Part shown: positions 10,751 through 46,070 of the stretch, piece after piece
How positions within the stretch are numbered: position 1 is the first letter of the stretch
Layout of the letters: each line of letters starts with the position of its first letter
Assembly: GCA_963752285.1 (NCBI GenBank)
Contig: CAVVXN010000005.1
Coordinates: forward strand, 1,728,001 to 1,792,000
DNA: 64,000 bases
Direction of reading: 5' to 3'
Source of the DNA: an uncultured Planctomycetota bacterium
Lineage (GTDB): Bacteria; Planctomycetota; PLA2; JAEUHO01
The notes under the pieces: model-generated
The model's input: the letters and a program-made list of their open reading frames with translations, nothing else
Told to the model about the DNA's origin: nothing
The model's database searches: none
Translations under genes and position numbers: made by a program

Positions 10751-13700
10751 AGATCTCCGACGCCGCGATCAAGAAGCCCGTCTTCGCCTGGATGCTCATG
10801 GCGGGCCTGCTCGTGTTCGGCGGCATCGGCTTGACGCGCCTCGGCGTGAGTCGCCTGCCCGACGTCGACTTCCCGCAGGTCACCGTGAACCTGGTGCTCG
10901 AGGGCGCGTCCCCCGAAACGATGGAGACGACGGTCGTCGAGGTCGTCGAGGACGCGTGCACCACCGTCGAGGGCGTACGCAACATCACGTCGGAGTCGCG
11001 GGAAGGCGCCGCGAGCGTCACGGTGGAGTTCGACCTGGGTCGCAACATCGACGCGGCCCTCCAGGACGTACAGACGAAGATCGCACAGGCCCAGCGACGC
11101 CTGCCGGCGGACCTCGAGCCGCCCGTCGTGACGAAGTCGAATCCCGAGGACAGCCCCATCATGTGGGTGTCCCTCACGGGACCGAGGAGCCCGCAGGAAC
11201 TCTCCGACACCGTCCGGTACGTGCTGAAGGACCGGATCCAGACGGTGCCGGGTGTCGGTGAGATCCAGATGGGCGGCTTCCGGGAGCGGAGCCTCCGCGT
11301 CTGGCTCGACGCGGACCGCCTCGACGCCCTCGACCTGACCGCGTCCGACGTGCTCGCCGCCATCCGCCGCGAACACGTCGAGCTGCCCGCGGGCCGCATC
11401 GAGACATCCTCGCGCGAGGTGAACGTGCGGACGCTCGGCGAGGCGCTCGACGTGAACACGTTCGCGAACCTCGCGATCGCCGATCGGAATGGGAGCACCG
11501 TACGGCTGAAGGACGTCGGCGCGGTCGAGGACGGCCTCGAGGACCGCCGCCGCATCTCGCGTACGAACGGGGTGTCCGCGCAGGGGATGGGCATCAAGAA
11601 GCAGCGCGGCGCGAACGCCGTCGCGGTGGCGCACGCCGTACGCGATCGTCTCGACGAGATCCGCAAGCAGCTGCCCGCCGACCTCGACCTGAAGGTCATC
11701 TTCGACTCGACCGGCCCCGTCGAGGACGCGATTCACGAGATCTACCTGACCCTCGGCCTCGCGGTCCTCCTGACGGCGGTGGTGTGCTGGCTCTTCCTCG
11801 GCTCGATCTCCTCCACGGTGAACGTCTTGCTCTCGATCCCGACCTCGATCGTGGGCACGTTCGCGGTGATGTACTTCCTCGGCTTCACCCTGAACACGTT
11901 CACCCTGCTCGGCCTGTCGCTCGCGGTGGGCATCGTGGTCGACGACGCGATCATGGTGCTCGAGAACATCTTCCGCCGGGCGGAGGAGGGCGAGACCCGG
12001 ATCCGCGCCGCGGTCGCGGGGACCCGCGAGGTCGCGTTCGCCGCGCTGGCGGCCACGGCGGCGATCGTGGCCATCTTCCTGCCGGTCGCGTTCATCCGGG
12101 GCGTGATCGGCGCGTTCCTCTTCCAGTTCGGGGTGACGATCGCCACGGCGGTCCTCCTCTCGCTCCTGGAGGCGCTCACCCTCACGCCCTCGCGCAGCGC
12201 GCAGTTCCTCTCGGTGGGCACGCGGCGCACGTTCTTCGGACGCGGGTTCGACGCCGGCATGGAGGGCCTCGCGCGCGCGTACCGCTTCACGCTCCGCGGC
12301 GTGCTCCGATGGAGATGGGTGGTCCTGCTCGTGGGCACCGGCGCGTTCGTCCTCTCGCTCGGCATCCTGCCGAAGCTGAAGCGCGAGCTGATCCCCTCGG
12401 AAGACATGGGGATCACCATGATCCGGCTCTACACCCCCCCGGGGTCCTCGATCGACGTCACCGACTCCATCGTCAAGCGAGGCGAGGCCCTGCTCCTCGC
12501 GCGGCACGACGTGAAGACCGTCTTCGCCGCGATCGGGGGACGGGACGGCGGCGAGGTGAACCGCGGGATCCTCTTCGTCACGCTGATCCCGCGCGAAAAG
12601 GGCCGCGTCTCGATGCCCACGTTCGTGAAGCAGATGCGGGCGGAGTTCGCGAAGATCCCCGACGTCCGGGTCTCCTTCCAGGACATGAGCGTCCGCGGGT
12701 TCACGGCCCGTCGGGGCTATCCCGTCGAGTTCAGCGTCCGCGGTCCCGACTGGAACCGGCTCGGCCAGGCGGCCGAGCGGATCACGGCGGCCATGGAGGG
12801 GTCGGACACCTTCGCCGACGTGGACACGGACTACGAGGTGGGCATGCCCGAGGTGCGCGTCGTGCCGGACCGCGCGCGGGCCGCGCGGACCGGCGTGAGC
12901 ATGCAGGCCATCGCCGAGACCGTGAACGCCCTGGTCGGCGGCGTGCGCGCGGGGACGTACGAGTCGAACGGCCGCCGGTACGACATCCGGGTGCGGCTCT
13001 TCTCGAAACAGCGCGACCGTGAAGCCGACATCGGACGCCTGCGCGTCCGCGCGAGGAACGGCGAGATCGTCCCACTCGACACGCTCGTCCGTCTCGAGAG
13101 CCGTCCGTCGCTCCTCGCGATCACCCGCGACGCCCGCGAGCGAGCGATCACCATCCACGCGAACGTCGGCCCCGACAGCTCGCAGGCCGATGCCGTGGCG
13201 GAGGCCCTTCGCCTCGCGAAGTCGATGCTTCCCGAGGGGTACCACGCGGTCCCCGTCGGGAGCGCGCAGGCACTCCAGACCTCCTTCGACGACCTCGTCT
13301 TCGCCCTCGTCCTGGGCGTCCTCGTCGCGTACATGGTCCTCGCCAGCCAGTTCAACTCGTTCGTGCACCCGATCACGGTCCTCGCCGCGCTTCCCTTCAG
13401 CCTCTCCGGCGCGTTCCTCGCGCTCTACATGTTCGACATGTCGATCAACCTGTACTCGTTCATCGGCATCGTGCTGCTGATGGGCATCGTGAAGAAGAAC
13501 TCGATCCTGCTCGTGGACTTCACGAACCAGCGACGACTCCTCGGGCTCTCGCGGGACGCTGCGCTGCTCGAGGCGTGCCCGATCCGCCTGAGGCCGATCC
13601 TGATGACGTCGGTGAGCACCTTCGCCGGGGCCCTCCCCGCCGCGCTCGCGGCAGGCCCCGGCGGCGAGGTCCGACAGCCGATGGCCATCGTGGTCCTGGG

Positions 13701-16637: not shown

Positions 16638-17572
16638 GGGATTCGACGTCCTGGGGGGAGCCGGTCGGCGGGACACGGCGGCGGACGCCCCGTCCCTCGC
16701 CGAAGCTCCCACGTTTCGATCCGGCCATCCGTACGGCGGAGACGGAGGGTCCGTTGGCCCGGCCCCCCCGTCCGACCCGCAAAGGATGCGAGCAGCGGAC
16801 GGGTCGGAGGGGCGCCGTCCACGCAAAGGACCCGGTCGCCGGGCCGCAGGCCCAGACAGGCTGCGGCGCTCCCCGGAGGGACGCGGACGACCGGGGCGTC
16901 CGTCCGTCCGCCCTCCCCCGCCGGGAGGACGGAGGCCTCGAAGAGGAGCACCGCCCCCTCGGTCCCCGGCCGCGCCCGGGCCCGGGGCGGAGGCGGAAGC
17001 GGGGACGCAGACCCGGCCGGGGCGAGGGCCTCGGCCAGCCGGGTCGCCTGCTCCAGGGCGAGGCGCCGGGCGCCGCCCAAGGCCGCGGCCTCGGCCGCGT
17101 CGCCCGCGGGGCCCTCGGTCGGACTCCCCAGCACCCGGGCGATCGCGAGGAGGAGCTGTGGGAGCCGGGCGTCCCCGCCGGCCCGGGTGCCCGCCGCCGA
17201 GATGCGGCAGAGGCCCTCGGCGAGCCGCCGTTCGGCCGCCGCCGTGTCGGCGGCGGGGACGGGGACGGGGCCCCGGCCCGGGAAGCGTCCTCCGTGTCGG
17301 ACGAGCGCCTCGACGTCCCGGGCGAGGTCCCGACCCGTACGACGGTCGTCGGAAGCCGCCGGGGCCACCCGGCGGAACCCGTCCGCGGCGAGGCGACGCG
17401 CGAGGTCCGCCCGGACGGCGGGGTCGAGGCCCGAGACGTCGAGGTCCCGTACCACGCCCCCCTTCTCGAAGTGCCACACCTCGTGGGCCTCGGCCTCCCC
17501 GGCCGGCGCCAACGGCGCCAGGACCCCGAGCAGAGCGGCGACGACGGCCGCGCCGAGCAGGAGACGCGCCAT
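16577..17572 (-). CDS. Putative secreted protein with C-terminal PDZ-like domain
   Basis: Signal peptide and PDZ-like PGSAAACLGLRPGDRVLCVDG. The 3' end overlaps the next gene by 61 bp. Confidence 0.6.
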   Translation of the reverse strand: MARLLLGAAVVAALLGVLAPLAPAGEAEAHEVWHFEKGGVVRDLDVSGLDPAVRADLARRLAADGFRRVAPAASDDRRTGRDLARDVEALVRHGGRFPGRGPVPVPAADTAAAERRLAEGLCRISAAGTRAGGDARLPQLLLAIARVLGSPTEGPAGDAAEAAALGGARRLALEQATRLAEALAPAGSASPLPPPPRARARPGTEGAVLLFEASVLPAGEGGRTDAPVVRVPPGSAAACLGLRPGDRVLCVDGAPPTRPLLASFAGRTGGPGQRTLRLRRTDGRIETWELRRGTGRPPPCPADRLPPGRRIPCAPSPSSSPCSSSSPSPGR

Positions 17573-21887: not shown

Positions 21888-22766
21888 ATGGCCGCATCCA
21901 GGACGACGACCCGCCGGCGGGGGGGCGCGACGCGTCCGAGCGTGCGGACGACGCGGACCCGCCCCTCGGGGGCGGGCCGCCCCGCGCCCCGCGTCCTCGT
22001 GCTCCGCTCGCCGGGAACGAACTGCGACCGCGAGACCGCCTTCGCCTTCGCGCGCGCCGGCGCGAGCACGACGGACATCCACGTGAACGCGCTCCTCGAG
22101 CGGCCGCGCCGCCTGCGCGAGGTCCACGGGCTCGTCCTCCCGGGCGGCTTCTCGTACGGAGACGACCTCGGCGCGGGGACCGCGCTCGCCACCCGGATCC
22201 GCGCCGGCCTCCTCGACGAGGTCCGCCGGCTCGTGGACCGCGGGGGCGTGGTCCTCGGGATCTGCAACGGCTTCCAGGTGCTCGTGAAGACCGGTCTCCT
22301 CCCGGGCTTCGACGCGAACGACGAGCGGGTCCTTGGTCTCGCGTCGAACGTGAAGAACCGGTACGAGGACCGCTGGGTGACGCTCGAGGTCGCGACGGGA
22401 CGGAGCGTCTTCTTCGAGCGGGGCGAGCGGATCCACTGCCCGGTCGCGCACGCCGAGGGCCGCTTCCTCCCGAAGGACGAGGCCGTGCTCGAACGACTGG
22501 CCCGCGCCGACCAGGTGGCGCTCAGGTACGTCGGTCCCGGGGGCGAACGCCCGGCGCCCTACCCCTACAACCCGAACGGATCCGTAGGCGACGTGGCGGG
22601 CATCGTGGACCCGACCGGTCGCATCCTCGGGATGATGCCGCATCCCGAGAGGAACCAGTTCCCCTGGCAGGATCCTCGCCACGGTCGATCCGGCGCGCCG
22701 CGGCGCCCGGAGGGGCGCTCCCTCTTCGAGAACGCGGTCCGACACCTCCGGTCCGTCGTCGGCTGA
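21888..22766 (+). CDS. purQ: Phosphoribosylformylglycinamidine synthase glutaminase subunit
   Basis: PGTNCD, PGGFSYGD, GICNGFQ, AHAEG, NPNGS, GMMPHPER. Confidence 0.96.
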   Translation: MAASRTTTRRRGGATRPSVRTTRTRPSGAGRPAPRVLVLRSPGTNCDRETAFAFARAGASTTDIHVNALLERPRRLREVHGLVLPGGFSYGDDLGAGTALATRIRAGLLDEVRRLVDRGGVVLGICNGFQVLVKTGLLPGFDANDERVLGLASNVKNRYEDRWVTLEVATGRSVFFERGERIHCPVAHAEGRFLPKDEAVLERLARADQVALRYVGPGGERPAPYPYNPNGSVGDVAGIVDPTGRILGMMPHPERNQFPWQDPRHGRSGAPRRPEGRSLFENAVRHLRSVVG

Positions 22767-22846
22767 GGGCCCCGCGGGAGGTCGATCGCTTCCATCCCCG
22801 GGCCGCCGCCGTTCCAAGAGGGGAACGAACCTCGGGGGAGCCGACC

Positions 22847-24355
22847 ATGCCGATCCGCGCCGCAGAAGCCGCCCTTGGAACCGACCGCCGGCCCCCCACC
22901 CGATCCGGGCGCCGGCACGCCCTTCGGACGCCGGCCTCCCTGGCGCCGCTCCTCCTCCTCTCCGTTTTCCTCCTGCCCGCGCGCGCGGACGACTGGAAGG
23001 ACGGCCGGAACGACCGTCACGACCGCGCCGTGGCCGCGCTCGAGGAGGCGGCGCGCGCGGCCGCGCGCCCGACGGGCGTGGCGCTCCGGCACGGAGACGT
23101 GCGCGTGGTCGCGGACCTCGCCCGCGTGGACGTCGTGCTCGAGATCAAGAACACGACGAGGACGCGTACCGAGTGGTCGAGGAGCTTCGGCATCGACGAC
23201 GCGGCCGAGCTGATCGGCGCCGCGCTCGAGCGCGCGACCGGGCCGCGGGTCGCCGCGCAGACGATGACGCTCGAGAGCGCGCGCCGCATGTACGGCGAGA
23301 TCACCCGGCCGCCCCCCGTGCGGCGGAGCACGCCGTGGCCCCGCCGCGACCCGCTGCGCGTCGAGCGCCCGTCGGACGGACGTCTCGACGTGGTGGTCAC
23401 CCCGCTCGACCCCGGCGAGGTCGTGCGGGTGCACCTCGACTTCGTGACGCCGCTCCGGGGGCGCGGCGCGCGGCGCGCGTACCGCGACGTGATCGACGCG
23501 GACCTGGGGAGTGAGGTCGCGTCGCGCCGCGCGACGCCCACGGCGCCCGACCGCGCGCCCGCGCCGCGCTCGCCCCTCCTCCTCTCCATCGAGACCGACT
23601 GGCTCGTACGTCCCGGTGGCCTCACGGTGGACGCCGCGCCGATCGGCATGGTCGCGGCGGGCTCCGCCGGCGGGGTGCTCCGGTTCGTGGGGGCCTCGGC
23701 GGGGCCGGCGGACGTGCCGACCCTTCCGTTCCGCACGCCCCGCGAGGACGCGGGCGCCGGCGCGATCGCCGTTCCCGGGGGCGGGCTCCTCTCCCGCGTC
23801 GTCGTCTGGCGCTTCGACCCGAGAGCCTTCCTCGCGGCGCACGACCTCGAGGCACCGGCGGGCGCCACGCTCCGTCTGCTCCGCCGCACCGGCTCGACCT
23901 CGCGCATCGCGCCGTTCACGTTCGGGCCGGCCGACGCGCCGCTGCCCGTGACCGCCCGGCTCGGTGCCGGGGCGCAGACCCTCCGCTACGGGGTCGAGGT
24001 CCGGGATGCGGCCGGCAAGACGATCCGCACGATCGAGGTCGAGGCGCCCGTCGAGGAGCCGAGCCTCTCGCCGGACCTCGAGGGCGCCATCCTCGGCTGG
24101 CACCGCGCCGCGCTCGTGCGTCGCGTCCTCGCGTGGGCGAAGGGCGCCCCGGAGCGGGAGGCTCGCGCGCTCGCCTTCGCCGTGGACGAAGGGGTGCTCG
24201 TCGGGGGCACGGCGGGGCTCGCCGTCCCCGAGGCGGAGCTTCGCGCGGCCCCCCGTCGGAGCCGGAGCGAGTACCGCCACGACGGTTCGCCGCTCGGCGC
24301 GCAGCACGGCGAGGCGGACTTCAAGGGCCCACCGTGGGGTTCCCTCGACGACTGA
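22847..24355 (+). CDS. Secreted VIT (vault/inter-alpha-trypsin) domain protein
   Basis: Hydrophobic signal ending LLPARA; VIT-like segment (ARVDVVLEIKN...ARRMYGEI...RDP...PLDPGEVVRVHLDF). Confidence 0.65.
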   Translation: MPIRAAEAALGTDRRPPTRSGRRHALRTPASLAPLLLLSVFLLPARADDWKDGRNDRHDRAVAALEEAARAAARPTGVALRHGDVRVVADLARVDVVLEIKNTTRTRTEWSRSFGIDDAAELIGAALERATGPRVAAQTMTLESARRMYGEITRPPPVRRSTPWPRRDPLRVERPSDGRLDVVVTPLDPGEVVRVHLDFVTPLRGRGARRAYRDVIDADLGSEVASRRATPTAPDRAPAPRSPLLLSIETDWLVRPGGLTVDAAPIGMVAAGSAGGVLRFVGASAGPADVPTLPFRTPREDAGAGAIAVPGGGLLSRVVVWRFDPRAFLAAHDLEAPAGATLRLLRRTGSTSRIAPFTFGPADAPLPVTARLGAGAQTLRYGVEVRDAAGKTIRTIEVEAPVEEPSLSPDLEGAILGWHRAALVRRVLAWAKGAPEREARALAFAVDEGVLVGGTAGLAVPEAELRAAPRRSRSEYRHDGSPLGAQHGEADFKGPPWGSLDD

Positions 24356-24379
24356 GGGCCCGCCGCGCTCCCCGCGCCG

Positions 24380-28894: not shown

Positions 28895-30037
28895 CTACTT
28901 CTTCCTCGGGAGCGGACGCTTCTTCGCGGCCTTCGACGCGGTGGACGTCCGCTTCGGGGAGGACGACTTCTTCGGCGCGGGCTTCCGTGCCGGGGGCGAC
29001 TTCTTCTTGGCCGCCTTCTTCGCGGCCTGCGCCTTCTTCTTCTGGGCCGCGGCCTTCTTCTCGGCCTGGGCCTTCCGCTTCGCCTCCGCCGCCGCCTTCT
29101 TCGCCTCCGCGGCCTTCTTGGCGTCGTGACGCTTCTTCTCGATCGCCGCCTTCTTCTCCTGCGCGGCCTTCCGCTTGGCCTCCGCCGCGGCCTTCCGCGC
29201 CTCCACCACCTTGCGGCGCGCCTCCTCGCGCTCGCGCTTCACCTTGTCCCGCGCCTCCTGCTTCTTGCGGCGCTCCTCCTCCTTCTTCTGGCGACGCGCC
29301 TCGATCACGCGGCGCGCCTCCTCCTTCTTCTTCGCGCGCTCGCGGTCGGCGACCTCCTTCGCCTTCAGGCGGACGAGCAGGTCGCAGAGCGGGTGCGAGG
29401 GATCCCAGGTCTCCTCGTGCAGGTGCGCGCTCGCGCCCGCGACCCAGGCGAAGCGGTAGCGAGCCTCGGCAGGGATCTTCCGCTCCACGATCTGGCGCAC
29501 GCGCTGCGGCGTGCTCGCGCGCGGCAGCATGCCGAGGCGGGAGAGGAGGTGCCGCTCCCGCGGGCCGAACGCGAGGCGGCCGGTCCCGATCGCGATCTGG
29601 AACACGAGCGCGGCCGGACCGCCGAGCGTGTTCGGGAGGTCCCGGACGAAGTTCCGCTGGTCTTCCGGCTCTCGGCCCCGCAACGGCTCGAGGTCGAGGC
29701 CGTGCGCCGCGTCCCAGACGTCCTGGAGCGCCATGCGCAGGTCCCAGCAGACGACGCGCACGTCCTTCCCCTCGGGCACGAAGGGCTTGACGACGGTCTC
29801 GAGCTCCTGGAGCGGCGAGCCGCGCGCCTCGTTCATGTCGATGAAGACCCGGGAGATGGCGCGCACGCACGCGCGGGCCTGGGCCTCGCCGAGGTGCCAG
29901 CCGAGCACCGCCACCATGAGGTGGTCGATGAGGGGGTCCTCCACGCGCTCGGCGAGCGCGATCGGAGGGAAGAGCGCCTCCAGCACCGACAGGGCCTCTT
30001 CGAGCGTCGGCTTCTTGGGGGACGCCTTGGCGGCCAC
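28895..30037 (-). CDS. Endonuclease III/HhH-GPD-like protein with Lys/Ala-rich histone-like C-terminal tail
   Basis: FIDMNEARGSP and degenerate HhH (DLPNTLGG...RLLSRLG-like); the last ~130 aa are K/A/E-rich. Confidence 0.65.
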   Translation of the reverse strand: MAAKASPKKPTLEEALSVLEALFPPIALAERVEDPLIDHLMVAVLGWHLGEAQARACVRAISRVFIDMNEARGSPLQELETVVKPFVPEGKDVRVVCWDLRMALQDVWDAAHGLDLEPLRGREPEDQRNFVRDLPNTLGGPAALVFQIAIGTGRLAFGPRERHLLSRLGMLPRASTPQRVRQIVERKIPAEARYRFAWVAGASAHLHEETWDPSHPLCDLLVRLKAKEVADRERAKKKEEARRVIEARRQKKEEERRKKQEARDKVKREREEARRKVVEARKAAAEAKRKAAQEKKAAIEKKRHDAKKAAEAKKAAAEAKRKAQAEKKAAAQKKKAQAAKKAAKKKSPPARKPAPKKSSSPKRTSTASKAAKKRPLPRKK

Positions 30038-30040
30038 GGA

Positions 30041-35513: not shown

Positions 35514-35574
35514 CCGCGGCTTCCCGCCTCCCGCCGGGGCACCGCGTCCCGCGCGCCGACCGGACCACGTTCCC

Positions 35575-36873
35575 ATGCGCGACCGCACTTGGATCCACGA
35601 CCTTCGAAGGCACGTCGGCGAAGAGGTGACGGTCTACGGGTGGGTGCGCCACCGTCGCACGGCGGGCCGCCTCTCCTTCCTCGAGGTGCGTGACGGCTCC
35701 GGCGACGTCCAGGTCGTCGTGCGCGCGGGCGCCGCGAGTCCCGCGGCCTCAGAGGCGGCGGCGAAGGTCGCCCTGGAGAGCAGCGTACGCGTGCACGGCG
35801 TAGCCCAGGCGCACCCGAAGCGACCGGACGAGTGCGAGATCGACGCCCGGGACGTCGAGGTGGTCGGTCCCACGACCCTGGAGTGGCCGCTCGGAAAGAA
35901 GGACCACGGCACGGGGTTTCTCTTCGAGAACCGGCACCTCTGGCTCCGGGGGTCGAAGCCGGCCGCGGTGCTCCGCCTCCGCGCCCAGGTCATCCGCGCG
36001 CTGGTGGAGCACCTCGACGCGCTCGGGTTCGTCCGCGTGGACGCCCCGATCTTCCAGTCGGCGGCGGCCGAGGGAACCGCGACGCTCTTCCCGGTGGAGT
36101 ACTTCGACCAGAAGGTGTACCTCTCGCAGACCGGCCAGCTCCACATGGAAGCGGCCGCCCAGGCGCTCGGCCGCGTGTACTGCTTCGGGCCGACCTTTCG
36201 CGCCGAGAAGTCGAAGACCCGCCGCCATCTCACCGAGTTCTGGATGCTCGAGCCCGAGATCTCGTTCGCGAGCCTCGACGAGGTGATGGACCTCATGGAG
36301 AGCCTCGTCGGTCACGTCGTCGAGCGCGTCCTCGAGCGATCGCGGGCCGAGCTCGCCACCCTGGGCCGCGACCCGGCGCGCCTCGAGGCCGCACGCCCGC
36401 CCTTCGCCCGGATCTCCTACGACGAGGCCCTCGCCCTCCTCGAGGGGACCCCCGAGTCGATCCCGTGGGGCGAAGACTTCGGCGCGCCCCAGGAGGACGC
36501 GATCTCGAAGCGGTTCGACAAGCCGGTCCTCGTCCACCGCTTCCCGGCTCGGGTGAAGGCCTTCTACATGCGCCCCGACCCCGAACGGCCCGACGTCGCG
36601 CTCGGCTGCGACCTGATCGCCCCCGACGGCTACGGCGAGATCATCGGAGGCGGCGAGCGGAGCTCGGACCTCGCGTTCCTCGAGCGACGGATCGCCGAGG
36701 AGGGTCTGCCCCCGGAAGCGTACGCGTGGTACCTCGACCTTCGCCGCTATGGCGCCGCGCCGAGCGCCGGGTTCGGGCTGGGCCTGGAGCGGGTGGTCGC
36801 CTGGCTTGGCGGCCTCGATCACGTTCGCGAGGCCGCCCCCTTCCCCCGCACCCTCCACCGGACGGCGCCCTGA
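35575..36873 (+). CDS. asnS: Asparagine--tRNA ligase
   Basis: YLSQTGQL, FGPTFRAEKSKTRRHLTEFWMLEPE, GEIIGGGER, GFGLGLER. Confidence 0.95.
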   Translation: MRDRTWIHDLRRHVGEEVTVYGWVRHRRTAGRLSFLEVRDGSGDVQVVVRAGAASPAASEAAAKVALESSVRVHGVAQAHPKRPDECEIDARDVEVVGPTTLEWPLGKKDHGTGFLFENRHLWLRGSKPAAVLRLRAQVIRALVEHLDALGFVRVDAPIFQSAAAEGTATLFPVEYFDQKVYLSQTGQLHMEAAAQALGRVYCFGPTFRAEKSKTRRHLTEFWMLEPEISFASLDEVMDLMESLVGHVVERVLERSRAELATLGRDPARLEAARPPFARISYDEALALLEGTPESIPWGEDFGAPQEDAISKRFDKPVLVHRFPARVKAFYMRPDPERPDVALGCDLIAPDGYGEIIGGGERSSDLAFLERRIAEEGLPPEAYAWYLDLRRYGAAPSAGFGLGLERVVAWLGGLDHVREAAPFPRTLHRTAP

Positions 36874-36962
36874 GGGCCCCGTTCGCGGCCCTTCCTCCTC
36901 CTTGCGTGCGTTCGCACGCGGCGTCGTCGTCATGGCCACTCCTTGGGGCCCTCAGGGCGCCG
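36863..36962. repeat. Dispersed ~100-bp structured element (solo copy) overlapping the asnS stop codon
   Basis: Perfect 18-bp terminal inverted repeat (36863-36880 / 36945-36962). The core is nearly identical to the units at 43537-44003. Confidence 0.85.
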
Positions 36963-36985
36963 CTGGCGTACGGACGGGCTCGCGT

Positions 36986-37435
36986 GCGGGCTCGCGGGCC
37001 CGCCTTTGGCGGGGCCGCATCGCGCGGGGCGGGGCGGGGGGGCGGGCTCGCGGGCCCGCCTTTGGCGGGGCCGCATCGCGCGGGGCGGGGCGGGGGGGCG
37101 GGCTCGCGGGCCCGCCTTTGGCGGGGCCGCGTCGCGCCGGGCGGGGCGGGGGGCGGGCTCGCGGGCCCGCCTTTGGCGGGGCCGCGTCGCGGCGGGGCGG
37201 GGCGGGGGGCGGGCTCGCGGGCCCGCCTTTGGCGGGGCCGCATCGCGCCGGGCGGGGCGGGGGGGCGGGCTCGCGGGCCCGCCTTTGGCGGGGCCGCATC
37301 GCGCGGGGCGGGGCGGGGGGCGGGCTCGCGGGCCCGCCTTTGGCGGGGCCGCTTCGCGGGGGGGCGGGGCGGGGGGCGCGCTCGCGGGCCCGCCTTTGGC
37401 GGGGCCGCTTCGCGGGGGGCGGCGGGGGGGGCGGG
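36986..37435. repeat. Tandem array, 8 copies of a ~55-56-bp unit (hairpin + G-tracts)
   Basis: CTCGCGGGCCCGCCTTTGGCGGGGCCGC recurs 8 times, separated by near-identical G-rich linkers. Confidence 0.92.
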
Positions 37436-37463
37436 TAGAGTCGGGTGGGCGGTGGAGGCGTGG

Positions 37464-38486
37464 ATGAGCTCGAACGATTCGTCCCATCCCGAGGCGGCCG
37501 GGCGGATTCGTGCGCTCGAGGAGGCGGTGGCCTCGACGGTGCTCGGGCAGGACTCGGCGGTCCGGGAGGCCGTGGCCTGCCTCCTGGCGGGCGGGCACGG
37601 ACTCCTCGAGGGCGCGCCGGGGATGGGCAAGACGCTGCTCGTCCGCTCCCTCGCCGCGGCCACCGGACTCCGGTTCACCCGGATCCAGTTCACGCCGGAC
37701 CTGCTCCCCGCCGACATCACGGGGACCGAGGTGCTCGACAGCGAGGGGGTGGGTCGCACCTTCGCGTTCCGGCCCGGCCCGCTCTTCGGGCAGGTCGTGC
37801 TGGCCGACGAGGTGAACCGCGCGACGCCGCGCACCCAGTCGGCTCTGATCGAGGCGATGGCCGAGCGGGGCGTCTCGGTGGGGAACGAACGCCACCCCCT
37901 GCCCGAGCCGTTCTGCGTCCTGGCGACCCAGAACCCGATCGAGATGGAGGGCACGTTTCCGCTGCCCGAGGCGCAGCTCGACCGGTTCCTCCTGAAGATC
38001 CTGGTCCCCGCGCCGTCGGAGGCCGCCCTCGTCTCGATCCTGGAGCGGACGGACCAGCCGGAGCCCAGGCTCCCGGAACCGGCCACCACGCCCGACGACC
38101 TTCGCGCGCTGATCGAGGAGGTCCGCGCCGTGGTGGTCCCCGGCCCGCTGTACCGCCAGGTCGCCCGCTGGGTGAAGGCCACGGCCCCCTTCGGCCTCGA
38201 GGCCACCGCCGCGGCGCGCCGGGCGCTCCGGCTCGGCTCGAGCGTGCGCGGCGGCGAGGCGATCTGTCGCGTGGCGCGCGTGGCCGCCCTGCGCGAGGGG
38301 CGCGGCTACGTCACGAGCCAGGACCTCGCGTCCGCGCTGCTCCCCGCGCTTCGACACCGTCTCCTCCCCTCCTTCGAGGCCGAGGCGCGCGGACTCGTGG
38401 GAGACGCCCTCGTCTCGGACGTGCTCCACGACGTGGCGGAGCTCCCCCCCGAGGTCGAGCGCGTCCTGGCCGCCATCGAGCGCTGA
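37464..38486 (+). CDS. moxR: MoxR family AAA+ ATPase
   Basis: EGAPGMGKT, RIQFTPDLLPADITG, LADEVNRATPRTQSAL, ATQNPIEMEGTFPLPEAQLDRF. Confidence 0.93.
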   Translation: MSSNDSSHPEAAGRIRALEEAVASTVLGQDSAVREAVACLLAGGHGLLEGAPGMGKTLLVRSLAAATGLRFTRIQFTPDLLPADITGTEVLDSEGVGRTFAFRPGPLFGQVVLADEVNRATPRTQSALIEAMAERGVSVGNERHPLPEPFCVLATQNPIEMEGTFPLPEAQLDRFLLKILVPAPSEAALVSILERTDQPEPRLPEPATTPDDLRALIEEVRAVVVPGPLYRQVARWVKATAPFGLEATAAARRALRLGSSVRGGEAICRVARVAALREGRGYVTSQDLASALLPALRHRLLPSFEAEARGLVGDALVSDVLHDVAELPPEVERVLAAIER

Positions 38487-41762: not shown

Positions 41763-42272
41763 ATGATCCGAGCCGTGACCCTTCCCGCGGGGCTCCTCCT
41801 GGTCCTCGTGGCCCTCGCGCGCGCCGAACCGGAGTCAAGGGCGGCGTTCCTGCTCCCCGGCGGCGTCCGCGTCGCGGGAGCGCCGGTCGCGGGCCCCGGC
41901 CCCTTCGTCCGCGTGGCGGTGGGGCGCTTCGTGTACGAGCTCGAGCCCGAGAACATCGTCCGCGAGGGATCCGGCACGAGCGCGCCCGCGAGCGAAGAGG
42001 TCTCCCGCCTCGTGGAAGACCTCGTCCCACGCCTGGCGTCCACGGACCCCGACGTGGCCCGCGCCGCGCGTGCGGCGCTTCTCGTCCTCGGGACCCGAGC
42101 GATCGAGGATCTCGACGCCGCCCGCCGCGAGGCGGGAGCGGGTCCCCTCGGCGACGCGCTCGACGAGGTGAGGTCGGAGATCCGCGCCACGGGCGCGACG
42201 GCGCGAGGTCCCGCTCCCACCGTCCCGAGCCGGCCCGTCCCGAAGGGAACGTCCCCCGGAGCCGGACGATGA
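41763..42272 (+). CDS. Small secreted protein with HEAT-like repeat
   Basis: GGAGG RBS, signal peptide, LASTDPDVARAARAALLVLG; stop overlaps the next start (ATGA). Confidence 0.7.
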   Translation: MIRAVTLPAGLLLVLVALARAEPESRAAFLLPGGVRVAGAPVAGPGPFVRVAVGRFVYELEPENIVREGSGTSAPASEEVSRLVEDLVPRLASTDPDVARAARAALLVLGTRAIEDLDAARREAGAGPLGDALDEVRSEIRATGATARGPAPTVPSRPVPKGTSPGAGR

Positions 42273-43549
42273 CGCCCCGCCGTCGACTCGTCCTGGCGCT
42301 CTCGCCCATCGTGTTCCTGGGGCTCGCGGCGGCGGGCGTCCTTCCCGACGCGCACGCGGACGAGACCACCTTCCAGAACCTCATGGACCGCGCCCGACAG
42401 ACGCTCCGGGAGGCGGAGCGTCTCTGGAACGCGGGCGACCCCGGCGCGCGTCCGCTCGCCGATCGTGTCGACCTGCTCCTGGAACAGGCCGACTCCCAGC
42501 GATCCGGCGAGCCCGCGGTCGCGCTGGTGGGCGTCGAGACGGCCGTGATCGCCGGCGACCCCGCGCGGGCCCGACGGTGGCTCGACCGCTACGCCAAGCG
42601 CTCCCCGTACGGCGAGGACGACCCGGACCTCTACTACGCCCGAGCGTTGATCGCGTACTACCTGGACGAGGTGCCGGGAAGGGCGGTCGCCCTCCTGCGC
42701 CGCATGAACGAGCTGAGCCCGAAGGCCGGGGGGCAGGCGCGAAACCTCCTCTACTACCGGTCCCTCATGGCGGAAGGCGCGCGGCTCGTACAGGGGAGCG
42801 CCTTCGGGGACGCCGTCCCCCTCTTCCAGGAGGCCGCGCGACGAGCGATCGCTCTCGGCGACCACAAGAAGGAGCTGGCCGCACGGGGCAACGCCGGGAT
42901 CTCGCTCGACGCGGCGGGCCGGCACGACGACGCGGAGGTCGTGTTCCACCACCTGGCCGACGAGGACCCGAGGAACCCGACGTGGGCGTGGTACCGCGCG
43001 GAGAGCCTCGCGGGCGCCGGGAAGCTCGCCGAGGCCCTCCCGGTGTACGAGCGCGTTCTCGCGCTCCTCCCCGAGTCCCACCTCCCGTCGCCCGACCTCG
43101 CGCGCATGCAGCTCGCATGGCTGCGCCTCGGGAACGTGCACCGCGGCCTCGCCGCGCACGAGACGGACCCCGCGAAGCGCCGCGCGGAGCTCGCGGAGGC
43201 GGAGAAGGACTTCCGCCGGATGGTCGAGCTCGAGCCGGACCTCGCGCTCGGACACTACTGGCTGGGCGTCGTCCTCTACGAGGACCTGAAGCGGCCGTAC
43301 GAGGCCGTCGAGGAGCTCGAACGCGCGCGGACGCTCGACCCGGTGAGCGACGCCGCGCTCGAGTTCCTCATCCGGATCGGGACGCAGAACGGCCCGCCCC
43401 CGACCGACGACCCCGCGGCGGCCGCGAAGGCGCACGAGGCGTGGGCCGAACGCCTGGCCGCGTGGCGGAAGGACTACGAGGATCACAAGGCCGAGCGTGC
43501 CGACCAGAGACGCACCCGCCCCCCCTTCCCCTTCCGGCCGGGGCGCTGA
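42269..43549 (+). CDS. Secreted tetratricopeptide-repeat protein
   Basis: Signal peptide ending AHA; multiple TPR-like helical repeats. Confidence 0.85.
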   Translation: MTPRRRLVLALSPIVFLGLAAAGVLPDAHADETTFQNLMDRARQTLREAERLWNAGDPGARPLADRVDLLLEQADSQRSGEPAVALVGVETAVIAGDPARARRWLDRYAKRSPYGEDDPDLYYARALIAYYLDEVPGRAVALLRRMNELSPKAGGQARNLLYYRSLMAEGARLVQGSAFGDAVPLFQEAARRAIALGDHKKELAARGNAGISLDAAGRHDDAEVVFHHLADEDPRNPTWAWYRAESLAGAGKLAEALPVYERVLALLPESHLPSPDLARMQLAWLRLGNVHRGLAAHETDPAKRRAELAEAEKDFRRMVELEPDLALGHYWLGVVLYEDLKRPYEAVEELERARTLDPVSDAALEFLIRIGTQNGPPPTDDPAAAAKAHEAWAERLAAWRKDYEDHKAERADQRRTRPPFPFRPGR

Positions 43550-44160
43550 GGGCCGAGTTCGGGCCCCTTCCTCCTCCTTGCGTGCATTCGCACGCGGCGT
43601 CGTCGTCATGAGCCCTCCTTTCGTCCCTCAGCGCCCCGGCTCGAGGGGCGGGTCGGACTGGGGACGGACGCGGGGACCGTGCGCGTCGCGCACTTCGCGC
43701 GCTCGCAGCGGACGGGCCTTGCGGGGCGCTGAGGGCCGAGTTCGGGCCCCTTCCTCCTCCTTGCGTGCATTCGCACGCGGCGTCGTCGTCATGAGCCCTC
43801 CTTTCGGCCCTCAGCGCCCCGGCTCGAGGGACGGGCGGACTGGGGACGGACGCGGGGACCGTGCGCGTCGCGCGCTTCGCGCGCTCGCAGCGGACGGGCC
43901 TTGCGGGGCGCTGAGGGCCGGGTTCGGGCCCCTTCCTCCTCCTTGCGTGCATTCGCACGCGGCGTCGTCGTCATGAGCCCTCCTTTCGTCCCTCAGCGCC
44001 CCGGCTCGAGGGACGGGTCGGACTGGGGACGGACGCGGGGACCGTGCGCGTCGCGCGCTTCGCGCGCTCGCGGCGGACGGGCCTGGCGGGACCGGGCGGA
44101 GCGGATGGCGGGGCCCGGACGCGTCGCGCGCTTCGCGCGCTTGCGGCGGACGGGCCTGGC
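43537..44160. repeat. Tandem array of three ~182-183-bp units plus a partial copy, each holding the ~100-bp structured element
   Basis: Units start near 43540, 43723 and 43905; hairpins at 43537-43640, 43722-43821 and 43904-44003; partial linker copy near 44120-44160. Confidence 0.92.
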
Positions 44161-44270
44161 GGGGCGGGTCGGAGCGGACGGCGGGGCCCTGGCGCGTCCG
44201 CGCGCGCGTGGGGGTCGGACCCCGGGGGGAGGATGTCGGGTCGCTCGTCGGGACGCGTTGCGAGGAACCG

Positions 44271-46070
44271 ATGCCGGGACTGCCGTTTCGCCCGTTCGAC
44301 CTCGAGGCCACACCCGAGGTGGACGGCGAGGTCGGCGCGTGGGTGCGGCGGCTCGACGACGCGCTCGGCCGGGAAGGAGACGCGGGCGCCGACGACGCCC
44401 GGGAGGCGATCGAGCGGCTTCGCGCGCTCTGGCGCGCACGCCCGGCGGCGTTCGACGAGGCCCTCGTCTCGCGCCTGAAGGAGGTCGGCCGTCGCCTGGA
44501 GCGCCCGGCCCGGACTTCCGCGCCACCGGCCGACGCGCTCCTGGTCCTGAGGACCGTGTTCGGGTACCCGTCTTTCCGCCCCGGCCAGGAGGAGCTGGTC
44601 AACGCCGTCCTCGCGCGCCGCGACGCGGTCGGCATCCTCCCCACGGGCGCGGGGAAGTCCATCGCGTTCCAGCTCCCCGCGCGGCTCCTCGACAAGCCCA
44701 CGCTCGTCGTATCTCCCCTGATCTCCCTCATGAAGGACCAGGTGGACGCCCTCGAGCAGACCGGTATCGCCGCCACGTTCCTGAACTCGACGGTCGAACC
44801 CGTCGAGCGGGCGCGGCGCGTCGCGGGCCTCGAGCGCGGCGCGTACGAGATCGTCTACGTGGCGCCGGAGGGCCTCCGGACCCATCTGCTCGCGGAGCTC
44901 GGCCGCGTGGAGATGGGCCTGGTCGCCGTGGACGAGGCGCACTGCATCAGCCACTGGGGACACGACTTCCGGCCCGCGTACCGCGAGCTCGTGGGCTTGC
45001 GGCGCCGGTTCGCGGGCGTGCCGTTCCTCGCGCTCACCGCGACAGCCACGCGTCGCGTCGAGGCGGACGTGATCGAGCAGCTCGGCATGCGAGACCCACT
45101 GGTCGTCCGCGGCTCGTTCTTCCGCCCGAACCTCCACCTCCACGCGTACCGCAAGGCGGCGCGGATCGACGGCGAGCGCGCGGTGCCCCCGGTGCGCGAG
45201 GCGGTACTCCGTCTGGTCCGCCACCGCGCGGGGCAGAGCGGCATCGTGTACTGCCTGTCTCGCCGGGCGACCGAGTCCACCGCCGCGTACTTGGAGCGGG
45301 GCGGCGTCCGGGCGGCCGCATACCACGCGGGGCTCGAGGCCGGGGAGCGCGCCCGCGTGCAGGAGGCGTTCCAGGCGGACGACGTGGAGGTCGTGGTGGC
45401 GACGATCGCGTTCGGGATGGGCATCGACAAGTCGGACGTCCGGTACGTGATCCACCGGGACATGCCGCGCTCGGTGGAGGGGTACTCGCAGGAGGTGGGA
45501 CGCGCGGGACGTGACGGCCTCCCGAGCGACTGCGTGCTCTTCTACTCGTGGTCCGAGGTGACCCAGTACGACCGGTTCGCCGCCGGCGCGCCCCCCGAGG
45601 TCGCCGAGAGGGTCTGTGCGCAGGCGCGCGAGATGTTCGCGTTCGCCGACGCGCCCGCCTGCCGACACCAGGCCCTCGCTCGACACTTCGACGAGACGAT
45701 CGAACCCTGCGGCGCCTCGTGCGACGCGTGCACGATGGCCGACGTGCTGGCCGAGGCCCCGTCGGCGAAGCGCGCGCCGCGGGCGAAGGTGTCCCGTGCG
45801 ACGGTCACCGACGACCCGGTGGAGGCGGAGGCGTTCGAGCGATTGCGCCGCTTCCGACGCGAGGTCGCGACCGCCGCGGGTGTGCCGGCCTACGTCGTGT
45901 TCCACGACGCGACGCTCCTCGCGATGGTCCGGGGCCGTCCCACGACCCTCGCCGAGCTCGCCGAGGTCCCCGGCGTGGGCTCGCGGAAGCTCGAGCGGTA
46001 CGGCGCGCGGTTCCTCGCGTGCCTCCTCGGGGAACCCGATCCCGGTTCCGGTCTCGCCGAGACCGTCTGA
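44271..46070 (+). CDS. recQ: RecQ family ATP-dependent DNA helicase with HRDC domain
   Basis: PTGAGKS, VDEAHCISHWGHDFRP, ATIAFGMGIDK, QEVGRAGRDG, Zn motif CRH..CGASCDAC, HRDC VPAYVVFHDATL. Confidence 0.93.
   Translation: MPGLPFRPFDLEATPEVDGEVGAWVRRLDDALGREGDAGADDAREAIERLRALWRARPAAFDEALVSRLKEVGRRLERPARTSAPPADALLVLRTVFGYPSFRPGQEELVNAVLARRDAVGILPTGAGKSIAFQLPARLLDKPTLVVSPLISLMKDQVDALEQTGIAATFLNSTVEPVERARRVAGLERGAYEIVYVAPEGLRTHLLAELGRVEMGLVAVDEAHCISHWGHDFRPAYRELVGLRRRFAGVPFLALTATATRRVEADVIEQLGMRDPLVVRGSFFRPNLHLHAYRKAARIDGERAVPPVREAVLRLVRHRAGQSGIVYCLSRRATESTAAYLERGGVRAAAYHAGLEAGERARVQEAFQADDVEVVVATIAFGMGIDKSDVRYVIHRDMPRSVEGYSQEVGRAGRDGLPSDCVLFYSWSEVTQYDRFAAGAPPEVAERVCAQAREMFAFADAPACRHQALARHFDETIEPCGASCDACTMADVLAEAPSAKRAPRAKVSRATVTDDPVEAEAFERLRRFRREVATAAGVPAYVVFHDATLLAMVRGRPTTLAELAEVPGVGSRKLERYGARFLACLLGEPDPGSGLAETV

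Follow-up and report, generated by a model that had tools for sequence, protein, structure and literature searches.

A palindromic repeat set on the stop codons of two genes in an uncultured Planctomycetota bacterium

What is the strongly structured repeat that sits on the stop codon of a tetratricopeptide repeat (TPR) protein gene in an uncultured Planctomycetota bacterium: the source of a small regulatory RNA, or a palindromic repeat with no such role? The question is raised by a 64,000-nucleotide stretch of contig CAVVXN010000005.1 (assembly GCA_963752285.1, forward-strand positions 1,728,001–1,792,000; GC content ~73%), referred to here as the window. An original prediction, made from the letters alone, had described a structured element of ~100 nt with anti-Shine–Dalgarno (anti-SD) tracts, triplicated in tandem in the 3′ untranslated region (3′ UTR) of the TPR gene, and had proposed either a family of small RNAs (sRNAs) or a mobile palindrome. 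Our analysis confirms that there is a tandem structured repeat at the stop codon. The element looks like a new intergenic palindromic repeat and not a proven small regulatory RNA. The reading that we favour, with a probability of about 0.5, is that of an orphan, lineage-specific, non-coding repeat, akin to the repetitive extragenic palindromes (REPs) and bacterial interspersed mosaic elements (BIMEs), which would act on the mRNA of the gene upstream as a 3′ stem-loop that clamps the stop codon.

Analysis of the TPR locus with Tandem Repeats Finder revealed 3.0 copies of a 183-bp period at 43539–44090 (97% matches, score 1055), and a repeat search gave start-to-start spacings of 183 and 182 bp. 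Each unit opens with a hairpin of ~100 nt, and the TGA of the TPR gene (43547–43549), which is the stop of the open reading frame (ORF) 42269–43549, lies within the first 5′ arm, so that three units of ~183 bp do run from the stop codon as claimed. The reading frame of the gene is backed by a codon-position GC pattern typical of a real + strand gene and by TPR matches in Pfam. A perfect closing stem of 14–18 bp had been assigned to every unit; this stands for unit 2, where the inverted repeat is perfect over 18 nt (43722–43739 and 43804–43821), but not for units 1 and 3, whose closing arms are 94% complementary across 17–18 nt. In unit 1 the complementarity reaches 28 nt at 86%, into the end of the TPR coding sequence. 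The arm core GGGGCGCTGAGGG occurs six times against 0.63 expected, a count attained in 0 of 100 shuffles, and a 31-mer comprising the tract and its hairpin occurs four times against an expectation of 0.00. The extent first given to the feature, 43537–44003, covers a real array, but one that continues to 44090 and is followed by a 73-bp × 2.4 array reaching 44205. The count of three copies is likewise right for the TPR locus but misses a fourth copy at 36859–36965.

At this second locus the core recurs with one mismatch at 36889–36919, and the stop codon, here that of an AsnRS-like gene, occupies the same position in the stem as it does in the copy on the TPR gene. A covariance model built from the four copies (CM R1) scores them at 121–146 bits; the next best score in the window is 17.6 bits, reverse reads of the same loci aside. 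There are thus four copies at two loci and none elsewhere within the 64 kb. Their orientation relative to stop codons, which the original prediction had marked for checking, is the same in both cases (2/2), each lying on the TGA of a + strand gene, and the two stop codons stand 6.7 kb apart. Beyond the hairpin the two loci are not similar above shuffles (score 26 against a shuffle mean of 23). Since the arrays and the other flanks are not alike above shuffle level, the shared unit is only an 86-nt module, running from CTGAGGGCC to GGCCCTCAG, which in copy A corresponds to 36870–36955. The copies, their core and the two genes that carry them are as follows.

36859–36965, + strand: copy A, single; last AsnRS codons and TGA (36871–36873) in the 5′ arm; CM R1 score 121.4 bits; folding energy −71.5 kcal/mol, z = −6.6
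43536–43641, + strand: copy B1; last TPR codons and TGA (43547–43549) in the 5′ arm; 135.6 bits; −67.0 kcal/mol, z = −7.3
43722–43821, + strand: copy B2; perfect 18-bp closing stem; 146.5 bits
43904–44003, + strand: copy B3; inverted repeat; 144 bits
43565–43609, + strand: conserved asymmetric core of B1 (CU-rich tract, 6-bp hairpin with a 4-nt loop, GGCGTCGTCGTCATG run); also at 36889–36933, 43748–43792 and 43930–43974
35560–36873, + strand: AsnRS-like class II aminoacyl-tRNA synthetase gene; start approximate; Pfam tRNA-synt_2, 1.5e-64; frame by codon-position GC; stop inside copy A
42269–43549, + strand: TPR-repeat protein gene; stop inside copy B1; orthologue in the relative L001 (see below)

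Within the element the order is a CU-rich tract, CCCTTCCTCCTCCTT, the 6-bp hairpin with its 4-nt loop, the run GGCGTCGTCGTCATG and a second CTCCTT. The elements of ~108 nt are far more stable than chance (z = −7.3 for B1 and −6.6 for copy A, 0 of 200 shuffles being as stable), and copies A and B1 share one fold architecture, at −71.5 and −67.0 kcal/mol, respectively. In each of the four copies the minimum-energy fold leaves the CU-rich tracts unpaired. A GGCC..TTCG..GGCC hairpin, previously placed inside the closing stem, proves to be an alternative pairing that competes with that stem and is unformed in the minimum-energy fold. Neither folding energy nor G–U pairing gives a clear preference of strand: the minus strand is 3.7–4.6 kcal/mol the more stable in all four copies, the two strands folding about equally well, and the outermost extensions of the stem use G–U pairs possible on the + strand only.

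The arms of the element are tied to the genes that carry them. A protein search with AsnRS returned 80 loci, the closest being three Planctomycetota metagenome-assembled genomes at 71% (L001), 68% (L003) and 67% (L002), with the others at 57% or less. When one locus whose alignment stopped short of residue 430 is set aside, 79 of 79 homologues share the C-terminal length and the final proline; the protein ends in RTSP, RVYP and RIYP in the closest three relatives and in RTAP here. Because this C-terminus is fixed, the codons GCG CCC TGA in the 5′ arm of copy A are native, and we conclude from the alignment that this arm is the host gene's own AsnRS sequence. The 3′ arm is the reverse complement of the AsnRS end, perfect over 19 bp and with further pairing into the preceding codons.

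The three closest relatives also allow the age of the element to be judged. The gene order RuvA–AsnRS–MoxR–(Ig-like protein)–TPR is kept in them, although in L001 the MoxR gene beside AsnRS (11316–12329) is inverted relative to the window, L002 and L003, the remaining neighbourhood being syntenic. The spacer between AsnRS and MoxR measures 14 bp in L002, ~110 bp in L003 and ~590 bp here; element and array are missing from the spacers of L002 and L003, and L001 has no element after AsnRS. CM R1 found no match at E up to 1 in the 80 AsnRS-relative loci (1,242,402 bases, default filters). Run unfiltered over L001, L002, L003, L027 and L040 (80,159 bases), it gave 16 matches at E up to 1, the best of which, at 19.9 bits, resembles the background of the window (17.6 bits). 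The exact 23-nt core has no match in 185,579 genomes, one per species, so that carriers of the exact core are absent from these species representatives, and blastn at a distant setting matched neither one unit to plasmids nor copy A to phages. The scan of Rfam returned nothing at gathering score over the whole window and, in the region of the element at E up to 10, four chance-level matches to unrelated families (E 0.89–6.9); a repeated, structured element with no catalogued match is therefore what the scan leaves. A limited, keyword-based literature search, which is no proof of absence, turned up no published account of the element. As judged by these genome comparisons, the element and its arrays represent a lineage-specific gain, which is recent at the AsnRS locus.

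How, then, do the copies differ? Of 37 predicted pairs, 7 differ on both sides from one locus to the other and 97.3% of cells remain paired, against 41–55% in slid controls, a count that comes from the single contrast of A with B and from a structure built on these very sequences. Nearly all stem pairs are Watson–Crick. Since, in addition, the outer arms are tied to coding sequences that differ, template switching during replication is the simplest source of the stem changes. In the sections of PMC8794818 used here, template switching is described as able to yield perfect stems and multibase 'compensatory' changes in one event. The apparently compensatory changes of our stems may therefore stem from this mutational process rather than from selection on an RNA, and the covariation is correspondingly weaker as evidence of RNA-level selection.

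We infer that the element is transcribed, that it serves as a 3′ stem-loop, that its arms arose by template switching and that its core arrived at two loci. Co-directional + strand genes flank both loci, which makes transcription of the + strand all but certain, if only as the 3′ terminus of the message from the gene upstream. The closing stem would have been extended outward, its 3′ arm becoming the reverse complement of the last codons of the host gene, and the arms would have been made and kept perfect by template switching with the selectively constrained coding arm as template. The product at the mRNA's 3′ end would be a stem of ~19–22 bp around the stop codon, within an element of −58 to −72 kcal/mol overall. 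Such a stem would block 3′-to-5′ decay at the end of the coding region, leaving a decay-resistant 3′ end with the whole coding region, and might also slow termination, by analogy with those REPs of Escherichia coli that are no more than 15 nt from a stop codon.

Several points weigh against this reading. Only two independent copies are available, and we can offer no mechanism by which the core came to lie exactly behind two stop codons. At neither locus is the hairpin followed by a U-tract terminator. As both strands fold about equally, the strand of the RNA is not established, and the minus strand reads AAGGAG, 5 nt, ATG at both loci, which a non-coding repeat must treat as coincidence. The 44-nt CU-rich core shows a single difference between the loci in 44 positions, where the rest of the element shows 17 in 62 (Fisher p = 0.0005), and compensated changes are found inside the shared module too, in the inner 4-bp helix and at stem positions beside GGGCC. 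This pattern of core and stem fits a functional RNA, or a DNA with sequence-specific single-stranded parts, and would not be predicted for a merely structural repeat. To judge from the alignment, this conservation gives genuine scope for a function that depends on sequence, whether it lies in the unpaired CU-rich core or in the GGA-rich strand complementary to it.

The tandem multiplication at the TPR locus calls for an explanation of its own, which involves the neighbouring arrays and genes.

43642–43721, + strand: ~83-nt spacer of unit 1, containing a GC-rich hairpin with a TTCG loop; recurs at 43822–43903 and 44004–44090; related to the 73-bp array units
44030–44205, + strand: 73-bp × 2.4 tandem array after the third unit; carries CGGGGCG, also in the 5′ arm of the element
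36986–37435, + strand: 56-bp × 8.1 tandem array after copy A; hairpin plus G-runs; unlike the 73-bp array
37464–38486, + strand: gene for a MoxR-type AAA ATPase, downstream of locus A; GGAGG ahead of it
44208–46070, + strand: gene for a RecQ-type helicase, downstream of locus B; exact start uncertain among 44208, 44233 and 44272

The order is thus copy A, 56-bp array and MoxR-type gene at one locus, and the TPR-locus copies, 73-bp array and RecQ-type gene at the other, the units of the two arrays showing no sequence similarity above shuffles. Units of the 56-bp array (95% matches) hold a 9–10-bp GC hairpin with a TTTG loop and + strand G-runs, GGGGCGGGGCGGGGGGG, with G-quadruplex potential. 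At the TPR locus the junction of spacer and next element reads GGACGGGCCTTGCGGGGCG/CTGAGGG, the array unit GGACGGGCCTGGCGGGGCG/GGTCGG and the end of the TPR gene CCGGCCGGGGCG/CTGAGGG. A crossover inside the 7-nt CGGGGCG shared by the 5′ arm and the first 73-bp array unit would duplicate the element with the first ~83 nt of the array and so produce the 183-bp unit. From these junctions the triplication looks like a secondary product of unequal recombination through 7-nt microhomology. It is recent, the units being 97% identical, and the single state of copy A means that tandem multiplicity is no trait of the family and no sign of a multi-sRNA locus. The hint of a multi-copy sRNA locus that had been read into the triplication is thereby lost, the phenomenon being confined to one locus and having a simple recombinational explanation.

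Stop codons in these genomes carry other palindromes and contexts of note. In the window, 40 of 48 predicted stops are TGA and 11 of these 40 are followed by GG (hand count). The 9-mer with which the element starts, CTGAGGGCC, is found again around the stops of two + strand genes that lack the element (22763–22771 and 24352–24360; stops 22764–22766 and 24353–24355), a GATase_5/PurQ-like gene and a gene for a 500-aa protein without Pfam match; it may represent a preferred target or simply a common C-TGA-GG context. At 509–535, where convergent cyclophilin and SDR genes are ~50 bp apart, a 16-nt perfect palindrome (GTGACGGCGCCGTCAC) unrelated to the element holds the cyclophilin TGA. In L001, the TAG stop of the TPR orthologue lies within an unrelated palindrome of ~165 bp (17375–17539) that has a 21-nt perfect inverted repeat and CTAG at both flanks, flanks which we take to resemble an IS5-type target duplication. 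Insertions in these GC-rich genomes favour stop codons as landing sites, as this L001 element shows. As to repeats within genes, the minus-strand gene at 28898–30040, with only a weak Borrelia_P83 match in Pfam, contains long low-complexity repeats of Lys/Ala/Glu type (Tandem Repeats Finder, 29000–29330), and a similar coding repeat of 18-bp period is present in L001 (3351–3713).

Three other explanations of the element have to be set beside the stop-clamping repeat. The conserved core is what a functional + strand regulatory RNA would provide: its CU-rich tracts (CCUUCCUCCUCCUU and CUCCUU) would be anti-SD-like seeds for GGAGG sites, in cis at the MoxR- and RecQ-type genes or in trans after processing of the 3′ UTR, and ribosomes at the UGA would melt the 5′ arm, making a switch coupled to upstream translation. 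We think it unlikely, even though the tracts are free in all four predicted folds, the core is invariant bar one loop base while the stems vary with compensation, the G–U pairs of the outermost extensions suit only this strand, and the downstream genes carry GGAGG-type sites; functional analogues, moreover, exist in the CcsR RNAs, which the consulted part of PMC8034643 presents as tandem, 3′-UTR-derived and equipped with anti-SD loops. Complementarity of this sort is undiscriminating, any CCUCC pairing with any Shine–Dalgarno (SD) sequence, and the SDs downstream are 500–650 nt away, beyond the tandem arrays. The covariation comes from two independent copies only and may be mutational, the minus strand folds slightly better, and neither an Rfam match nor a homologue in related genomes lends support. 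A search for sigma-70 promoters and intrinsic terminators found 0 sites in 36700–37600 and 43400–44400, although the promoter consensus may not fit planctomycetes; an intrinsic (Rho-independent) terminator is rejected on the same count. A bolder proposal develops the coupling into a translation-sensing RNA module tailored to its host gene, with a 3′ arm fitted to the final codons of each gene that would clamp the stop codon in a stem of ~20 bp; the terminating ribosome would melt the 5′ arm and free the 3′ arm and the CU-rich core to act on ribosome-binding sites (RBSs) downstream or in trans, or to recruit a factor. The element would then represent an undescribed class of Planctomycetota 3′-end riboregulators that moves from gene to gene and adjusts its stem anew by template switching; this we regard as distinctly improbable.

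Mobility offers a different account of the inverted repeats, as the transposase-binding ends of a miniature inverted-repeat transposable element (MITE), or non-autonomous transposon, mobilised in trans, whose core would be the remnant of a parent including the RBS and first codons of a minus-strand transposase gene. Terminal inverted repeats, small size, presence at more than one locus and gain relative to relatives all suit such an element, as does a minus strand that reads like a gene start (stop, SD, ATG), and a genuine MITE-like element, unrelated to ours, does lie on the TPR stop codon of L001. The arms tell against it: they differ between loci at 4 of 18 stem pairs, against 1 of 44 positions in the core, and copy A takes its 5′ arm from the native coding sequence of AsnRS. 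There is no direct flank repeat at locus B, the flanks being inverted, which leaves no target-site duplication. GGCGCC does flank copy A on both sides, but treating it as a target-site duplication would delete the conserved AsnRS stop, and the model fails at locus B. With a native coding arm and no target-site duplication, an ordinary MITE with terminal inverted repeats and target-site duplication is excluded. The search for a nearby RAYT or HUH transposase, which the original prediction had called for, found no transposase, RAYT or Y1 transposase in the 46 window proteins that were scanned, and neither an integrase nor a reverse transcriptase, with two element loci in 64 kb; no protein was found to start with the minus-strand peptide, and the core 23-mer is missing from the 185,579 species genomes. 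Mobilisation in trans is accordingly a poor prospect in our view. The suggestion of a REP- or MITE-like palindrome nevertheless came nearer the mark than that of an sRNA, with the reservation that a classical MITE is excluded. The gene-start-like minus strand could instead be functional in itself, as a translated small ORF or translation-initiation module (MTTTPRANARKEEEG...) or as a CsrA/Rsm-type sponge exposing AAGGAGGAGGAAGG and AAGGAGG. AAGGAG, 5 nt, ATG is kept at both loci though the 5-nt spacer varies, the lone core substitution (AAT to AAC) leaves the amino acid of this frame unchanged, this strand folds slightly better, and two of the ORFs, 43792–43974 (61 aa) and 43630–43792 (54 aa), are present as predicted proteins in a public set, as singletons. 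Beyond their common start, MTTTPRANARKEEEG, however, the ORFs have a different end in each copy (61 aa, 54 aa, and antisense read-throughs of 672 and 396 aa); past codon 15 the changes are mostly non-synonymous, and codon-position GC over 43500–44100 is flat at 0.70–0.83, where the flanking genes show ~0.5, 0.8 and 0.95. The only homologues of the peptide are the window's own two ORFs in the 5.8-billion set, searched at near and longer lengths, and among 1.84 billion representatives. A small minus-strand protein gene is rejected on these grounds, and the two database proteins are probably artefacts of gene calling, prompted by an SD-like AAGGAGG with an ATG behind it. With all flanking genes on the + strand an antisense promoter would be needed, and none was seen; Rfam gave no CsrB/Rsm match, no CsrA is encoded among the 46 proteins, and the GGA runs lie outside apical loops. 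A function for the minus strand is, overall, very improbable.

If the stop-clamping repeat is the true description, the element is a further orphan family among the structured intergenic repeats of GC-rich uncultured bacteria, which are poorly catalogued, and it carries two cautions: its minus strand has already been called as two 'proteins' in public sets, and apparent stem covariation between copies can arise mutationally. [quoted passage not shown] Were the translation-sensing module to prove correct, it would constitute a new type of translation-coupled 3′-end regulator.

Comparison with known systems places the element among the intergenic palindromes. Several classes were set aside early. 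A hammerhead or other ribozyme and SECIS or readthrough were dropped: Rfam lends no support, the AsnRS end is fixed in 79/79, and GC3 of the in-frame continuation after the TGA is low (hand count, 30 codons). Integron attC sites are imperfect palindromes at the 3′ end of a cassette, with R″/R′ core sites of GTTRRRY type; the GTTCGGG and GTTCGCG of our element misfit this motif, its hosts are syntenic housekeeping genes and the window holds no integrase, so that this class too was rejected.

The CcsR, or cuckoo, RNAs (Rfam ar14 group) resemble the element in their tandem homologous units downstream of a gene and their unpaired C/U-rich, anti-SD-like tracts. The account in PMC8034643, as far as it is cited here, gives them two hairpins per RNA, with CCUCCUCCC in each loop. 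The present element is instead one long multibranched hairpin, is tandem at only one of two loci, and has a planctomycete rather than an alphaproteobacterial host. The identification of its anti-SD tract with the cuckoo motif, part of the original prediction, fails on inspection: the exact CCUCCUCCC is absent, and the tract reads CCUCCUCCUU and lies in a multibranch or internal loop of the long hairpin. Membership of the group is further contradicted by the position of the tract away from the apex, by the lack of any ar14-type Rfam match and by the neighbours, which are AsnRS-like and TPR genes with no DUF1127 protein (the CIN1 context) among the 46 window proteins. Nor does the comparison with CsrB-type sponges survive, which expose many GGA motifs in hairpin loops and have a cognate CsrA, for there is no Rfam match to CsrB, CsrC or RsmX–Z and, as noted, the minus-strand GGA runs are not apical.

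MITEs, as represented by the CTAG-flanked 165-bp element of L001, are likewise small palindromes over a stop codon in a GC-rich planctomycete and missing from orthologous sites. The L001 element has constant terminal repeats of 17–21 nt and direct CTAG repeats, whereas that of the window has no direct flank repeat and arms that copy the gene end; with arms that differ between loci and flanks that are inverted, a MITE with constant terminal repeats and target-site duplication is rejected. Hairpins produced by template switching (quasipalindrome correction), as portrayed in the cited portion of PMC8794818, share with the element perfect Watson–Crick arms, multibase 'compensatory' differences and a coding-constrained arm as template. 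Unlike the element, they are the outcome of a mutational process and not a family, and the process leaves the core shared by two loci unexplained.

The closest parallel is with the REPs and BIMEs of Proteobacteria, of which the GTAG and CGTC families are, in the excerpt of PMC3733652 drawn on here, short stem-loops of 20–40 bp with an unpaired GTAG or CGTC head, the CGTC families having 8–9-bp stems with A/T at the first two positions, loops of 4–5 nt and a CCA tail (PMC3733652). The element belongs to neither: it contains no GTAG or CTAC, and CGTC appears only as GGCGTCGTCGTC, on the 3′ side of the 6-bp GC stem. It is moreover 86–108 nt long with an asymmetric conserved core where REPs are simple palindromes of 20–40 bp, its arms are locus-specific and include host coding sequence, and no RAYT was seen in the window. 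REPs of these families have many genomic copies and an associated RAYT (Y1 transposase) gene; the element has two loci in the 64 kb of the window. On the sequence evidence it is best filed with these repeats, distinguished by the conserved asymmetric core and by the arms copied from the host gene's own end. Like them, it is a GC-rich extragenic palindrome placed just after (here on) the stops of co-directional genes, in mosaic arrays with other short repeats. REPs have been proposed as exonuclease barriers and modulators of termination in the sections cited of PMC12306157 and PMC3733652, and E. coli REPs no more than 15 nt from a stop codon reportedly reduce translation by ribosome stalling (PMC12306157, in a passage citing Liang et al. 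2015), the roles that a stem clamped around the stop codons of the AsnRS and TPR genes may also play.

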